A stretch of DNA of 64,000 bases from Sulfolobales archaeon (lineage in GTDB: Archaea; Thermoproteota; Thermoprotei_A; Sulfolobales; NBVN01). The stretch lies in contig JAWBQY010000001.1 of the NCBI GenBank assembly GCA_038844925.1, positions 152,629 to 216,628 of the forward strand, written 5' to 3'. The position numbers and the translations under genes are program-made. The notes below the pieces were generated by a model that was not told the origin of the DNA, ran no database searches, and saw nothing but the letters and a program-made list of their open reading frames with translations. Shown here piece after piece: positions 3,481 through 7,546 of the stretch. Positions within the stretch are counted from its first letter, which is position 1, and every line of letters begins with the position of its first letter.

Positions 3481-3526
3481 GTTACAACCTGAAAGCCTCG
3501 TCCTTTAGGGCGGGGAGGAGGTCAGA
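3481..3526. repeat. Left copy of a perfect 46-bp inverted repeat (GTTACAACCTGAAAGCCTCGTCCTTTAGGGCGGGGAGGAGGTCAGA)
   Basis: It is the exact reverse complement of 7501-7546, checked base by base. Its last 5 nt overlap the csl4 stop codon. Confidence 0.95.
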
Positions 3527-4109
3527 CTTTAATTACTGCGTAACTAGTACTTAGCTTCCGTTTCTCAGTATTACCGCACTTAAAGCATTTGAGGGTGTCT
3601 GACTGATATTTCCTCATAGGTGAGCCGCATATGGTGCAATAAGCCATTACCACACCTAATTTCTGTTCCTTAATTGTTATGCTGTAGGGTGTTGTATCAT
3701 TTAACACCTTAGCCTTTACTATATCCCCAACTGCTAGGACATCGTAGAAGTTTCTAACATATCCCTCCTGGACTTGAGTTATGTGTAGTAGGCCGGTGAA
3801 TGGATTATCATATCTCCTCCCCAACTCATTCGCAAATATTTTAATTACTGCTAACTCTTCATAGAGTATTGTAACTAATCCGTATACTATATTACCCTTC
3901 GAAAGTAGTTGCGGGGTTTTAACACATGGCTTTACGCTAATAGTCCTCAACCTCAGATCAGGGCTTACCTTACCAACTACAGCAGCTCTTACAACACCTT
4001 CCTCTTCATAAACCCAACTACCCGGTAGGAATTCCTCTATGACGCAGAGCGCGGTGCCTGGAACGGCATCCATATTCATTAGTTCTTTCAACCTACTCAT
4101 CTTTACCAC
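3522..4109 (-). CDS. csl4: Exosome complex RNA-binding subunit Csl4
   Basis: 195 aa. It has an S1-like core and a C-terminal zinc ribbon (CTICGSPM...CFKCGNTEKRKLS), the typical archaeal Csl4 layout. Confidence 0.75.
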   Translation of the reverse strand: MVKMSRLKELMNMDAVPGTALCVIEEFLPGSWVYEEEGVVRAAVVGKVSPDLRLRTISVKPCVKTPQLLSKGNIVYGLVTILYEELAVIKIFANELGRRYDNPFTGLLHITQVQEGYVRNFYDVLAVGDIVKAKVLNDTTPYSITIKEQKLGVVMAYCTICGSPMRKYQSDTLKCFKCGNTEKRKLSTSYAVIKV

Positions 4110-4159
4110 CTCTTAACAGTAGGTTTAAGCGGTTTTAAAGGACAGGTATTAAAACGTTA

Positions 4160-5170
4160 TTACCAGGGGAAGATGTAATCACTAATGCTTTTTAATATCA
4201 TGAATGCCTCACCTGGCGTTAGAACCGGCTTCTCAAAGTCTTGTAGGTCGTCGATAGGTATTCTAGGACATGCCGTGATGACGTATGCCTCTACGTCCTT
4301 GCTATCTATATTTCTTAACGTTTCCTGATTTATAGTTGATGATCGGTACTCAAAGTATTTGAGACCTCTAGCTCTCAATGCATTTATTAATTCCTCCCTA
4401 ACACGGCTTCTAAACTGTCCTTCAACACCGTGGACTAAACACCAAGTAGCCGCATTTGAAGCCTCCATGACCTTACTGTAACGTATTCTTAAGTACTTCC
4501 ACACAACATCATCTAGTAGTCTTACCTCACCCCTATACGGGTCTACCTGAACCACGTGTTTTAACCCCTTAGTTACTATCCCAACTCCTAGTGGGTGGAA
4601 GAGACCGCCTGCAACTACTACGTAGCCGTCTGCTACGTCAACATGTCTTAATACATCGTTAAACCAGCACCCCATTACTACTGCATTGTCTAGATTGTTA
4701 AGGATTTTAATACTAGCATCTCTTAACTCCTCCTTCAAACGTCCTAAGTTTTTCTTATGTTGGTGGACTGTATATATAGCTACTTTATTAATGTTTAGCG
4801 ATTTTAGTAGCGTTATTAGCCTATTTATTAATTCCTTATTCAAAGTTAGAGTGCTTAGGAAGTCTGCAAATAATACCTTCCTAGGGATTTCCACGTCGTA
4901 CCCATATGGGTAGGGTTCGTGGCCGAAATGTATTGTTAGGTCGTACTGTGATATGAGGTTAGTATTAAGTATGCATGAACCGTAGGTTGGGTTAGCATCT
5001 ACTACGAATTCAACATCTCTTAGCGTGTTGGTTAGTTCTTCTAGTAGTTTGATTGAGTAGTGCTTGAATCCGTCTGGTAGTTGGATTAGTACTTTACGGG
5101 CATTAATACTTCGGACTTCCCTAACGATCTTATCTAGGTCGTAGGTATAGTACTTTTCTAACTCGTTCAT
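4160..5170 (-). CDS. dph2: Diphthamide synthesis protein Dph2 (2-(3-amino-3-carboxypropyl)histidine synthase)
   Basis: 336 aa. The N-terminal YDLDKIVREV...VLIQLPDGFKHY and the overall length fit archaeal Dph2. The start overlaps the rpl10e stop by 4 nt. Confidence 0.75.
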   Translation of the reverse strand: MNELEKYYTYDLDKIVREVRSINARKVLIQLPDGFKHYSIKLLEELTNTLRDVEFVVDANPTYGSCILNTNLISQYDLTIHFGHEPYPYGYDVEIPRKVLFADFLSTLTLNKELINRLITLLKSLNINKVAIYTVHQHKKNLGRLKEELRDASIKILNNLDNAVVMGCWFNDVLRHVDVADGYVVVAGGLFHPLGVGIVTKGLKHVVQVDPYRGEVRLLDDVVWKYLRIRYSKVMEASNAATWCLVHGVEGQFRSRVREELINALRARGLKYFEYRSSTINQETLRNIDSKDVEAYVITACPRIPIDDLQDFEKPVLTPGEAFMILKSISDYIFPW

Positions 5171-5688
5171 GACTTAGCTTCGCTTAAGCTCTCAATAACT
5201 ACTTCAGCCTTAATACCCATCTTAGAGAGCATCCTCCTCATAGCTTCCTTAGCATGTTGGACAAATCTATCAGGCACTCTAACCTCAGCAACTACATCAC
5301 CCTCGCAAATCCTAGCAGCAGTGCCTATAGGCCTCCCGAAAGATAGGCGCATCCCATCTTGAAGCCTATCAGCACCTGCGAAAGCCATCATCTTATTCTC
5401 CCTTAACACGTGATGGGGGTAAGACCTAATAATTAGTAAGTAGTTCTCATCACCAACATACTTGCTTAAGTACTTATGAGACATGACCCTAGCAGCCTCT
5501 AAGGCGTTATGCCTCACCTGAACATCTTCCTTAGAGATAAGCTTAACAGCAACATTAAAAACACCCTTAGTATTACCCATAACGAATTTCACTATCTTAG
5601 GCTGAGGAACACCACTTATATACTCCTTCCTAGTATATGGGGGTTTCTTAAGCTCCTTATAGCACCTACCAGGTCTTAGAGGCATCAC
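5167..5688 (-). CDS. rpl10e: 50S ribosomal protein L10e (uL16)
   Basis: 173 aa. The sequence MPLRPGRCYKELKKPPYTRKEYISGVPQPKIVKF is the characteristic L10e N-terminus. Confidence 0.9.
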   Translation of the reverse strand: MMPLRPGRCYKELKKPPYTRKEYISGVPQPKIVKFVMGNTKGVFNVAVKLISKEDVQVRHNALEAARVMSHKYLSKYVGDENYLLIIRSYPHHVLRENKMMAFAGADRLQDGMRLSFGRPIGTAARICEGDVVAEVRVPDRFVQHAKEAMRRMLSKMGIKAEVVIESLSEAKS

Positions 5689-6220
5689 CGCACACCTAAC
5701 ATAACCACCCTATCCTACAGACTCACAAATTATGTGAGGCGCAGACAGTTAATAAACTTTTCTTACAACCTAAACCAACCACACCGTCTAGGGGAGGCTT
5801 AACGAAATTGCTTTAGTGCTTCATAGACAGCCATCCTGTTTGTAGGGGGTTGGGAAGTCGGTTATGTAGAGGGGAGAGTAGTAGCGTAATAGTAACACAT
5901 GTTAGATTTAAGTCTTGAAGAGATTATGCATCGAAACGGCTGAAAACCCTAAACATCCTAGGCGGCATAGATCGAAGACCAGTTTAGGACTAGAAACAGG
6001 GGGATAAGGCAGTAACATCAACTAATATAAACCTGAAAGCAAACCCACCTTCTAACGCTCCTTATCATAATCTCAAATCATCGATCCTCTCAGACCTCTA
6101 CTAGGGAGGTCTGCCCAGCTCAGCATACTAGTGTATTTCCTTAAGGCTTTAAGGACTAGATATCTTGAGGATAGAATCATGCTTGAAGATTTATTAGGTT
6201 TGCTCTATGTTTTAATGATC

Positions 6221-6297
6221 GGGCCCGTCGTCTAGCTGGTTAGGACGCCGCCCTCACGCGGCGGAGGTCCTGGGTTCGAATCCCAGCGGGCCCACCA
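6221..6297 (+). tRNA. tRNA-Val (anticodon CAC), CCA encoded, no intron
   Basis: Hand-folded cloverleaf: acceptor GGGCCCG/CGGGCCC, anticodon stem CCGCC/GGCGG with loop CTCACGC, T arm CTGGG-TTCGAAT-CCCAG, then discriminator A and CCA. Confidence 0.9.
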
Positions 6298-6422
6298 GAA
6301 CTCTCCAACTTCTCACACGGACCTACATAAACGAACCTCTTCCTTCCGTTGACGTAGATGACTTTATAGAGGTAGTAGCGTCCCTTAACCCTCATAACTG
6401 TGTAGAACAAGTTATTACCCAT
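6240..6422 (-). mobile_element. SSV-type integrase N-terminal fragment (intN) reading antisense into tRNA-Val
   Basis: 60-aa ORF MGNNLFYTVMRVKGRYYLYKVIYVNGRKRFVYVGPCEKLE..., whose last 19 or so codons are antisense to the tRNA 3' half. The KGRYYxYK...NG...YVGP pattern resembles the SSV1 integrase N-terminus as I recall it. No C-terminal catalytic part follows. Confidence 0.6.
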
Positions 6423-7240
6423 AGTTACAACCCATCCATAAGTTTATGCTTTACTTTATTTAGGGGGTGGGTTATAATATTCCTCCAATATTCTCTTCTT
6501 CGGATTAGGATTAACATTCTATATACTGAAGCAACAATATATTTTTAGGTTAATTTCTATTTTGTTTTAGCTTTATTTTAATTTATTAATAAGTTCTTAA
6601 TCGAAAACTTCACGGTCATAAGATAAGTGTTTATAAAAACGTTAATTAACTCTTAGTATGGCATCTCCTCAAAATACTTTAAGAATATTTTTATGTACCT
6701 GATTAGTGAGATCCAAGTTATTTAAACTCCACACCCTCACTTCCTTCACAGCATCAGTTACTAAAATGAACTTCGCCTTTGATTTAGGATTTCTTCTTAA
6801 TTGGTCACTCGATTTTGACCTCAACCATAACTTATTCATCATCTACTGCTTCTATGTCACAATGTCTACTTCTTTAATTATTAGGATAATTGTCATATCC
6901 CTCTATAGTTTTATAGTCCATATTCATGAGCTAGTTCTCTTCTATTAAAAACTCGTGGAGTATTTTATGATATTTCCAGTTTACATTTAATCGCAATTCC
7001 CCAATTCTAACAACCCTTGCTAGTCTGGTTTCAGTAATTGTTAAACCTATTTACTGTCTTCTTACCCCTTATTTATAAGGGTAAGACTGTCTATTTTCCT
7101 TCTCCGGACTTAGCTTTAGTTCTCATATTAGTGTCGATTTTATTGAAGGGCTACCTACTGTCCTACCATAAAATACTACAAATAACCTAAGTAAATACAA
7201 TGACATGGTAGGTAGTATTACAAGTTACGAGTCATCACAT

Positions 7241-7262
7241 TTCATATGTATATACATATGAA
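7241..7262. repeat. Perfect 22-bp palindrome TTCATATGTATATACATATGAA
   Basis: Read directly from the sequence. It lies in the ORF-free AT-rich tract 6423-7500. Confidence 0.9.
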
Positions 7263-7500
7263 GCTCATCACAAATAAGGATGTACTAAATGCATATACAA
7301 ATTACGGAAATTACGGCTTCTTTAGTCTGACGGTCACGAAGATCATATTACAGTCTGGACTAAATTAACTAGACTTGTACGAACTTAATAGGAGTGAAAA
7401 CGAGTTCACTCTTAGAGTTCTATATGGTATAATGAAATAACATATGAAATTAGGTTTTAGTCTGACTTGATGATCCATAGACCTAGGATTAGAAGTAGTT

Positions 7501-7546
7501 TCTGACCTCCTCCCCGCCCTAAAGGACGAGGCTTTCAGGTTGTAAC
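7501..7546. repeat. Right copy of the perfect 46-bp inverted repeat
   Basis: It is the exact reverse complement of 3481-3526. It begins 29 nt downstream of the rgy stop codon (7575). Confidence 0.95.

Follow-up and report, generated by a model that had tools for sequence, protein, structure and literature searches.

Inverted 46-bp repeats resembling fused IS200/IS605 ends border a reversed 4-kb segment in an uncultured Sulfolobales lineage

We analyzed a 64,000-nt stretch of DNA from an uncultured Sulfolobales lineage (hereafter the window; NCBI GenBank assembly GCA_038844925.1, contig JAWBQY010000001.1, positions 152,629 to 216,628), in which a perfect 46-bp inverted repeat encloses a block of about 4 kb containing the csl4, dph2 and rpl10e genes and a tRNA-Val. 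Each copy of the repeat is built around a 40-nt gene-less unit, in which the left end (LE) and the right end (RE) of an IS200/IS605-type insertion sequence (IS) are fused around a single hairpin. The segment between the two units is reversed relative to its ancestral arrangement. We propose that it was inverted by recombination between two imperfectly matching copies of the unit, that this was accompanied by gene conversion, and that the product became fixed in one of two sister lineages rather than serving as a regulated switch. We place the probability of this reading, taken as a whole, at roughly 80%.

The repeat pair and its relatives across the archaea

The left copy of the repeat reads GTTACAACCTGAAAGCCTCGTCCTTTAGGGCGGGGAGGAGGTCAGA (3481-3526, plus strand), and its exact reverse complement occupies 7501-7546, with 3974 nt separating the two arms. 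A search of the window tolerating up to three mismatches returns no further copy, and 100 shuffles yielded none. Identity stops abruptly on both sides: the left copy is preceded by AACCTA and followed by CTTTAA, while the right copy, read on the minus strand, is preceded by GGTTT and followed by AACTAC, the repeat itself running in both cases from a G to an A. The exact inverted repeat and its sharp ends, both claimed in the original prediction, are thus borne out by the sequence comparison, the mismatch search, the shuffles and the flanks. So is the overlap of the left copy with the csl4 stop codon (3522-3524, TCA, which is TGA on the minus strand); the distance between the right copy and the stop codon of the reverse gyrase gene rgy (7575-7577), predicted to be 29 nt, measures 28 nt (7547-7574). 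The parts of the two copies are as follows.

3481..3526, plus strand: left (hydrogenase-side) copy, made up of G, a TTAC target (3482-3485), a 40-nt terminal-only IS200/IS605 element (3486-3525) and A
7501..7546, minus strand: right (rgy-side) copy, with TTAC at 7545-7542, LE arm at 7541-7532, hairpin at 7531-7512 and RE tail at 7511-7502
3486..3495, plus strand: LE arm AACCTGAAAG, whose last four bases, AAAG (3492-3495), match the LE guide tetranucleotide G_L at the hairpin foot
3496..3515, plus strand: subterminal imperfect palindrome CCTCGTCC-TTTA-GGGCGGGG with two T.G (G-U) wobbles, which the parent IS family has at both its LE and its RE
3516..3525, plus strand: RE tail AGGAGGTCAG, 10 nt, with the cleavage tetranucleotide TCAG (3522-3525) ending 10 nt from the hairpin foot

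This layout can be compared with that of IS608, which inserts 3' of TTAC, carries an AAAG guide directly 5' of the hairpin foot (G_L = AAAG, C_L = TTAC), has a right cleavage site ending 10 nt 3' of the hairpin foot and, as is the case for IS200/IS605 excision, leaves the TTAC target intact (He et al. 2011, PMC3201880). By the same logic each 46-mer can be parsed as a flanking G, the TTAC target, a 40-nt LE/RE fusion around a single hairpin, and a flanking A. Its 5' side is of the LE type, reading TTAC-AACCTGAAAG-hairpin, and its 3' side is of the RE type, with AGGAGGTCAG being identical to the RE tail of TnpB-encoding elements; the complement of the TCAG in this tail provides the TGA that ends csl4. 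The same subterminal palindrome was found at both ends of full tnpA/tnpB elements: the RE of nine TnpB-encoding loci and the LE of five loci with both tnpA and tnpB carry CCTCGCC(C/T)-TTYA-GGGCGGGG, and the window variant CCTCGTCC is also present in LEs and REs of metagenome contigs. These comparisons identify the 40-bp unit as a terminal-only palindrome-associated transposable element (PATE), derived from an archaeal IS200/IS605 element of the IS608-like, tnpA/tnpB kind. For 52-bp terminal-only PATEs of Haloquadratum, Dyall-Smith et al. 2011 (PMC3119063) invoke repeat-mediated deletion between the near-terminal palindromes of IS605-type elements and consider the products possibly mobilisable. 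Likewise, the solo units described here would arise by interior deletion between the two identical subterminal hairpins of a full element, and may also be mobilised in trans.

The relatives of the unit were collected by scanning one genome per prokaryotic species for the 22-mer TTNAGGGCGGGGAGGAGGTCAG, and by a second scan of metagenome contigs with the 20-nt hairpin. The 22-mer occurs at more than 118 loci, and all listed titles are archaeal. Among the matches listed are Thermoproteales, Desulfurococcales, Sulfolobales, Archaeoglobi, Thermococci, Nitrososphaeria, Methanomethylicota and Nanoarchaeota, and these matches fall into two locus classes. In the long forms a conserved upstream sequence ending in ..GGAAC precedes the hairpin, and at nine such loci an open reading frame (ORF) for TnpB (OrfB_IS605 plus a Cas12f1-like TNB domain) stops 17-50 nt before the end of the motif; the long form is the RE of a full IS200/IS605 element. 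The short forms, which include both window copies, read TTAC-AAC(T/C)GAAAG-hairpin-AGGAGGTCAG and are unrelated to each other from the TTAC outward. Their neighbors are unrelated host genes, such as those for an AAA ATPase, a radical-SAM enzyme, a major facilitator superfamily (MFS) transporter, an AMP-binding enzyme and endonuclease dU. The LE of full elements, identified in L024, L042, L048, L063 and L109, reads TTAC-AAC(T/C)GAAAG-CCTCGCC(C/T)TTYAGGGCGGGG-ATGA.. and lies upstream of tnpA and tnpB; the LEs of the same tnpB-bearing elements read TTAC-AACTGAAAG-hairpin-ATGA.., followed by tnpA.

A tally of guide and cleavage tetranucleotides over 281 non-redundant hairpins, among the matches listed in both scans, gave the following counts.

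GAAC guide, TCAG site: 41, archaeal RE
AAAG guide, TCAG site: 36, solo unit
GAAT guide, TCAA site: 15, IS608-like RE
CAAG guide, TCAG site: 8, solo of a TGAC-targeting subfamily

In the same set, an AAAG guide has TTAC 9-13 nt upstream in 38 cases and the CAAG guides have TGAC. The tallied guide/site combinations agree with the published IS608 rules. In 31 solos from 31 contigs of other archaea the units start with T[TA]AC, and the information content drops to ~0.1 bit per position upstream of TTAC and ~0.2 bit after TCAG. Conservation is therefore confined to the stretch from TTAC to TCAG, and the unit has sharp boundaries.

The exact 20-nt hairpin CCTCGTCCTTTAGGGCGGGG also occurs in IS608-type surroundings of the form ..GGAAT-hairpin-AGGATGTCAA (L135, L164, L167, L179, L191, L200, L205, L221, L239 and others in the metagenome scan), and hairpin-bearing contigs titled human gut (L159) and marine (L191) have variant or IS608-type tails. 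Conservation of the hairpin thus reaches well outside the thermophilic archaea, while around it the guide and the cleavage tetranucleotide vary together (GAAT with TCAA, GAAC with TCAG). A homogeneous solo family, TTAC-AATCCCGAAAG-hairpin-AGGAGGTCAG, was seen at four or more different flanks in metagenome contigs (L151, L166, L211, L243; also L060 and L118), which may indicate that the units spread in solo form; L151 stems from JGI sample 3300008000, in which the source organism of the window is also present.

In the original prediction two further claims were attached to the repeat. One was that its AACCTGAAAG motif is shared with element remnants in the window. This was not borne out: a single extra copy of this 10-mer lies at 6030-6039, isolated from any TTAC, hairpin or tail, and was rejected as a remnant, and fuzzy searches of the window for the LE arm, the hairpin and the RE tail returned only the two copies. 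The other was that the repeat is a footprint of site-specific recombination, such as an integrase attachment (att) site. The TTAC target, AAAG guide, palindrome and TCAG site 10 nt from the hairpin foot speak against it; moreover, the copies are inverted rather than direct and are unrelated to the tRNA-Val, and the tRNA has no partial duplicate in the window. Since the sequence reads as the fused LE and RE of an IS200/IS605 element, in inverted copies outside the tRNA, we rejected an integrase att site.

Inversion of the segment and probable conversion of one repeat copy

The arrangement of the genes bordering and lying within the repeats is the starting point for reconstructing what happened at this locus.

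3527..7500, no strand: inverted segment, 3974 bp, reversed relative to the ancestral arrangement
3522-4100/4109, minus strand: csl4 (Pfam), in an operon with dph2 and rpl10e, inside the inverted segment
4160-5170, minus strand: dph2 (Pfam)
5167-5688, minus strand: rpl10e (Pfam)
7575..11207, minus strand: reverse gyrase, rgy (Pfam), the fixed right flank, whose 3' end was the ancestral neighbor of the csl4 3' end

Using the Csl4 proteins we obtained outgroup contigs of five related lineages, with Csl4 identities to the window of 89% (L129), ~80% (L125 and L127), 75% (L130-132) and 75% (L133). In all five, rpl10e>dph2>csl4> faces a converging <rgy across a spacer of 18-44 nt, and none of them has an element in this spacer. 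In L130-132 the [NiFe]-hydrogenase genes and tRNA-Val(CAC) lie to the left of rpl10e, such that both outer flanks are shared with the window and the middle alone differs. Reverse-complementing 3527-7500 restores colinearity of the window with L130, and yields a single 6.1-kb high-scoring segment pair (HSP) with L129 that runs across csl4/rgy. As the outgroups are all un-inverted, the window carries the derived state.

Both states are found among very close relatives. A sister strain with a 99%-identical Csl4 allele (P0001) is represented by 14 un-inverted contigs, and the eight of these that were displayed (L255-L262, e.g. GCA_038833105.1) share the order hydrogenase > 2.3-kb gap > rpl10e>dph2>csl4>, 69 nt, <rgy. 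The reconstructed pre-inversion sequence aligns to them as one HSP of 10.4-12.6 kb at 99.4-99.5% identity, whereas the window as it stands aligns in three pieces, the middle one (3481-7546) reversed and the pieces overlapping in the 46-mers. The inverted order is shared by all contigs that have the same alleles as the window (13 for Rgy; 21 for Csl4, of which 16 were inspected), GCA_038841155.1 being an example of the inverted lineage. A comparison of flanks at 6+8 inverted and eight un-inverted loci showed that the outer flanks, TATAATAACCTA on the hydrogenase side and ACTCTTAGGTTT on the rgy side, are retained, while the inner flanks AACTACTTCTAATC and CTTTAATTACTGCG are swapped. The outgroup order, the breakpoints within the repeats and the exchange of flanks together identify an inversion generated by recombination between dispersed repeats. 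The original prediction had named inversion of the 4-kb block among its possibilities and called for its orientation to be compared among related strains; that comparison bears it out, with both orientations present among genomes that are 99.4% identical.

A perfect inverted repeat around a discrete block, with an integrase-like fragment inside it and both orientations in nature, could bring to mind a programmed invertible segment, with the 46-bp repeats as recombinase sites, for instance of the integrase whose fragment lies in the block. We give this very little credence. Orientation is wholly linked to lineage, with 21 inverted and 14 un-inverted contigs each having their own Csl4 allele, from which it follows that this is a fixed one-off inversion between sister populations and not a flipping switch. 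Further, the sole recombinase-like ORF in the block is a 60-aa fragment at the Pfam threshold that is tied to the tRNA-Val att site, no intact recombinase being present; the repeat is an IS200/IS605 end rather than a recombinase core site; the ancestral sites differ at four of 46 positions; and the block contains housekeeping genes with their own promoter region, leaving nothing to switch. A mis-joining of contigs at the inverted repeat merits still less consideration. All the sequences are indeed metagenome assemblies, but a 46-bp repeat is shorter than typical assembly k-mers (judging from the 'k141_' names of the ENA contigs) and reads, and each orientation was recovered in many independent assemblies from NCBI, ENA, JGI and Logan. 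Moreover, the un-inverted form has a diagnostic repeat copy with four single-nucleotide differences that never occurs in the inverted form, and orientation is linked to protein alleles outside the repeat.

This diagnostic copy lies in the csl4/rgy spacer of the un-inverted strains and is here termed copy B, while copy A lies on the hydrogenase side. Aligning the reconstructed csl4/rgy junction with that of L129 (89%) opens a gap of exactly 40 nt, which shows that the unit was inserted precisely 3' of the target and did not duplicate it. Read on the csl4 strand, the empty site ..ATT AAA GT/G TAA (the slash marking the insertion point) becomes ..ATT AAA GTC TGA. The change in the Val codon is silent and Csl4 still ends in ..AVIKV as in its relatives; because the TCAG of the element (CTGA on the csl4 strand) supplies a new stop codon, the protein is unchanged. 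Since the TTAC target reads GTAA, and TCAG reads CTGA, on the other strand, an insertion at a gene end of the form ..NNG TAA gives an in-frame ..NNC TGA, and by the same logic the TCAA of IS608 would give TTGA, again re-creating a stop; the site concerned is 3522-3527 in the window and 6575-6582 in L255. We tested whether solo units donate stop codons in general. Among 49 solos, four gene ends use the stop codon of the element, as against two and one in control frames, which is not a significant excess, and general stop-codon donation was rejected.

In the un-inverted strains copy A is the window 46-mer, and copy B is GTTACAACCcGAAAGCCTtGTCCcTTAGGGtGGGGAGGAGGTCAGA, which differs at element positions 10, 19, 24 and 31. 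The two copies were thus 42/46 identical before the inversion and matched without interruption over 15 bp at most. Both copies of the inverted strains are of the A type, and the four-difference variant of copy B was never seen. A simple reciprocal crossover at position x would yield A[1..x]+B[x+1..46] on the left and B[1..x]+A[x+1..46] on the right; it is rejected on logic, as the exchange point x would need to be both >=31 and <10. Thus, with all-A copies on both sides being impossible to obtain by a single crossover, the inversion was accompanied by gene conversion. The most likely route, as judged from the end products, is a conversion-coupled break repair with crossover: a double-strand break or gap would have formed in copy B, copy A would have served as the template for its repair, and resolution as a crossover would have both converted B to A and inverted the 3974-bp segment. 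Short-homology, short-patch recombination is known in Sulfolobus. Under this proposal the perfect identity of the repeats is best explained as having come about through the recombination itself.

Two observations address the polarity of the change. The A type is closer to the family consensus at all four differing sites, and four changes in 46 bp, all in one copy, are far more than the background divergence of 0.55% would give (Poisson P ~1e-4). The alternative that both copies were once identical and copy B drifted later has to accommodate that excess, as well as the proximity of A to the consensus, and is correspondingly improbable. The inverted lineage has itself begun to change: in two of its metagenome-assembled genomes (MAGs), L264 (5590-5597) and L271 (3063-3070), a new substitution has turned the stem sequence GGGCGGGG of the hydrogenase-side copy into GGACGGGG (element strand). 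Hence the repeat is in decay and not under purifying selection.

A route in several steps would give the same outcome. Here copy B would have been excised, an A-type solo re-inserted at the retained TTAC by a TnpA acting in trans, and the segment inverted by a reciprocal crossover between the now perfect repeats. Solos are very common (36 with AAAG/TCAG plus eight with CAAG/TCAG in 281 hairpins, among the matches listed), one homogeneous solo family sits at no fewer than four flanks (L151, L166, L211, L243), IS200/IS605 excision preserves the TTAC target (PMC3201880), and mobilisation of terminal-only PATEs was suspected by Dyall-Smith et al. (PMC3119063). However, three events are required instead of one, and the predicted intermediate, with A-type copies at both sites of an un-inverted chromosome, is seen in none of the eight un-inverted loci. 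The solo also has the LE guide AAAG and not the RE guide GAAC; as AAAG is mismatched to TCAG by the guide/site pairings tallied above, its RE would be expected to be cleaved poorly. We consider this route improbable, and favor conversion-coupled repair.

A stronger version of the repair proposal is that the 40-nt units are not inert scars but live substrates of a trans-acting enzyme, either TnpA nicking at TTAC/TCAG or a break made by TnpB, with the resulting breaks driving short-homology recombination between units. We regard this as a speculative and rather unlikely extension. If true, the conversion of B to A together with the inversion would be the signature of nuclease-initiated repair, and terminal-only PATEs, present in many archaeal phyla, would be portable recombination hot spots reshaping chromosomes, even when the repeats are shorter than 50 bp and imperfect.

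Several points weigh against our overall reading. The 64-kb window has no tnpA or tnpB (tblastn with nine TnpB proteins, best E 0.08). The surroundings of copy A align to no outgroup, and hence provide no empty-site comparator for it. The two units fit arrival as 40-bp solos as well as arrival as full elements that later collapsed, and do not tell these apart. The mechanism is deduced from end products only, and replacement of B by an A-type copy followed by an ordinary crossover gives the same result. The polarity, with B being old and then converted to the A type, depends on the two arguments above, closeness to the consensus and the Poisson probability, and local hypermutation of the hairpin could also have produced the differences in B.

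The hairpin as RNA and other features of the locus

A scan of the window at Rfam gathering thresholds recovered tRNAs only. In a permissive scan both copies, on the strand reading GTTAC.., matched HgcC (RF00062), but their 31.7 and 33.6 bits fall below its gathering score of 50. The alignment is convincing only over model positions ~75-117 and falls short of the whole model, being concentrated in the 3' end of the model, CCnCGnCC-UUUA-GGGCGGGG-AGGAGGUCAG; a weak match was also noted between the window hairpin and the terminal hairpin of sot0042 (RF02656). A C/D-box or other known RNA was rejected, the sub-threshold HgcC and sot0042 matches being the only ones, and it is these that led to the identification of the transposon ends. 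The hairpin corresponds to the tetraloop-hairpin RE motif of IS1341-type (tnpB) elements, which HgcC contains (Gomes-Filho et al., PMC4615843), and the sotRNAs of these elements are now named omega RNAs (PMC12558985). The window copies do not qualify as TnpB omega RNAs: the window has no tnpB, and the sequence upstream of them consists of intergenic DNA and the 3' end of rgy.

The HgcC consensus 3' end (GGAAC-CCCCGCCC-UUUA-GGGCGGGG-AGGAGGUCAG) coincides with the RE that TnpB-encoding IS200/IS605 elements have in many archaea (L015, L018, L024, L042, L048, L063, L092, L109, L110; window alignments 3383-3538 and 7489-7591). By this likeness HgcC, for which listings still give no function, appears to be the omega RNA/RE of this IS family.

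The 8-bp stem with two G-U pairs folds as RNA at -17.4 kcal/mol (z -2.0), against -11.3 kcal/mol (z -0.7) for its complement; as single-stranded DNA the hairpin strand is unremarkable (-6.7 kcal/mol, z -1.2). The folding energies agree with the original prediction that the stem forms only on the rgy mRNA strand and the plus strand of the left copy. That prediction had further raised the possibility of an RNA element shared by the 3' ends of rgy and csl4. Homology is indeed present, the 3' 31 nt matching the 3' end of HgcC/omega RNA, but the complementary tails of the two genes are a by-product of the inverted arrangement, for which no function is shown, and their geometry is confined to the derived inverted lineage.

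In the same vein, the hairpin plus AGGAGGUCAG might be a functional 3'-end module, acting as a terminator, as a stability element or through pairing of the rgy and csl4 tails. The stability of the hairpin on the rgy-sense strand (-17.4 kcal/mol, z -2.0), the frequent location of solos just after unrelated genes in the sense orientation, and the transcription of PATE-derived RNAs in Halobacterium (PMC4615843) would be in keeping with this. Against it, the copies decay, with the four substitutions in B weakening the stem and L264/L271 having a new stem substitution; a TTTT directly after the rgy stop (7566-7569, minus strand) precedes the element and would be a likelier archaeal terminator; the complementary-tail geometry is found only in the inverted lineage; and solo gene ends fall on the element stop in four of 49 cases, as against two and one in control frames. 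We therefore see very little likelihood of such a module, and no RNA function is needed to explain any of the observations.

The remaining features of the block cluster at the tRNA-Val.

6221..6297, plus strand: tRNA-Val(CAC), inside the inverted segment, at the same relative position in L130 and L125
6240-6422, minus strand: N-terminal fragment (60 aa) of an SSV1 D-335-like integrase (Pfam, 22.9 bits against a threshold of 22), overlapping the tRNA-Val
6298..7500, no strand: AT-rich non-coding DNA (GC 0.24-0.35), which together with 3028-3480 formed a ~1.65-kb stretch by the tRNA-Val 3' end before the inversion and holds copy A

Pfam confirmed the earlier gene calls for csl4, dph2, rpl10e, rgy and the integrase N-terminal fragment. 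The hydrogenase-tRNA gap of L130 is only 186 nt, and the ~1.65-kb AT-rich DNA is absent there; this stretch is probably what remains of an SSV-type integrated element after decay. A blastn search with the reconstructed 1661-nt stretch found no phage-genome match, and a second tRNA-Val att copy was not found in the window. The integrase fragment stems from a different and older integration event at the tRNA-Val. In L129 a gene for an N6/N4 DNA methyltransferase (188-1135) lies between the tRNA-Val region and rpl10e, amounting to ~1 kb extra relative to the window lineage, which suggests that foreign DNA repeatedly inserts close to this tRNA.

Between rpl10e and the tRNA-Val lie 530 nt without an ORF (5689-6220) that have G+C-rich patches and are partly kept in L129 (to 5845, and from 6174); within them lie the isolated AACCTGAAAG at 6030-6039 and, at 6087-6119, a very weak CRISPR-DR31 match (E 6.8). 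Elsewhere in the window two long tRNAs detected by Rfam, at 25962-26062 (plus strand, 46.1 bits) and 47644-47740 (minus strand, 44.2 bits), probably contain introns. ARAGORN missed the former and gave the latter an undetermined anticodon; the latter adjoins tRNA-Val(GAC) at 48547-48623, and the same arrangement recurs in L125. At 14931-14993 (plus strand) there is a match to the archaeal C/D-box sRNA family sR10 that, with 23.8 bits (E 0.08), stays below the gathering score of 45.

Significance and comparison with known systems

What was an unexplained perfect repeat can now be set out as a reconstructed event, with the identity of the repeat, its insertion site, the prior state of the chromosome and the change it underwent. 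Terminal-only PATEs, the guide/cleavage logic of IS608, the HgcC/omega-RNA hairpin and IS-mediated inversions are already known, and as an example of genome rearrangement driven by mobile elements the locus is clear but ordinary. New are a 40-nt Sulfolobales unit in the terminal-only PATE class with many relatives in other thermophilic archaea; the nucleotide-level reconstruction of a natural inversion across tiny imperfect repeats with their complete homogenisation; the persistence of both states in sister lineages; and the silent replacement of a stop codon.

An inversion across 46-bp repeats that agreed at 91% of positions and matched perfectly over no more than 15 bp is a useful case for considering minimal homology and conversion in Sulfolobales recombination. 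The 40-nt solo IS200/IS605 ends are widespread in thermophilic archaea of several phyla, extending the class beyond haloarchaea, and insertion of such a unit at a stop codon can leave the protein as it was, since the end of the unit restores an in-frame stop. For annotators, sub-threshold HgcC-like matches beside genes are to be taken as transposon ends.

Sulfolobus genomes are shuffled by IS elements and MITEs (miniature transposable elements with inverted repeats), and inversions occur between inverted IS copies. The window resembles these in that two inverted copies of a mobile element flank the segment, with the outer flanks kept and the inner ones exchanged. It differs in the shortness of the repeats, 46 bp, which before the event agreed at 42/46 positions with no perfect run above 15 bp, and in their homogenisation by that event. 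Bacterial repetitive extragenic palindromic (REP) elements and their REPIN doublets are mobilised by RAYT (TnpA_REP) transposases. Like the window units, they are very short, hairpin-bearing, gene-less relatives of the ends of HUH/Y1 transposons, intergenic and often located just after genes. The window units have another sequence and another tetranucleotide, imply no RAYT, are fused ends of a tnpA/tnpB IS, and lie 4 kb apart without forming a REPIN doublet.

With IS608 of Helicobacter pylori (PMC3201880) the window unit shares the TTAC left site, the AAAG guide, a right tetranucleotide whose end lies 10 nt 3' of the hairpin foot, and a mode of insertion by which no DNA is gained or lost. In contrast to IS608, its right site is TCAG (with a GAAC guide in the full elements) rather than TCAA/GAAT, the TTAC is 9-10 nt from the hairpin foot rather than 19, and the unit has one hairpin, no genes and a single LE-type guide. 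As for HgcC (RF00062) and the omega RNAs (RF02656), the last ~31 nt of the unit are nearly identical to the HgcC consensus 3' end and the same hairpin ends sot0042. However, the 5' two-thirds of the HgcC model are unmatched, the stretch before the hairpin is LE- and not RE-derived, and no tnpB is adjacent; the window unit cannot be a complete guide-RNA scaffold.

The closest counterparts are the terminal-only PATEs of Haloquadratum walsbyi (core-deleted HqIRS46 and a 52-bp unit derived from ISHwa23; PMC3119063). These too are gene-less IS605-type derivatives in which two near-terminal palindromes have collapsed to one, and, like the window units, they have neither inverted terminal repeats nor target duplications and lie beside a short targeting oligonucleotide. 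The window unit is 40 bp rather than 52, belongs to another sequence family and resides in a thermoacidophilic Sulfolobales host. Finally, the window pair marks the breakpoints of an inversion with gene conversion, which the portion of PMC3119063 on these PATEs does not describe.

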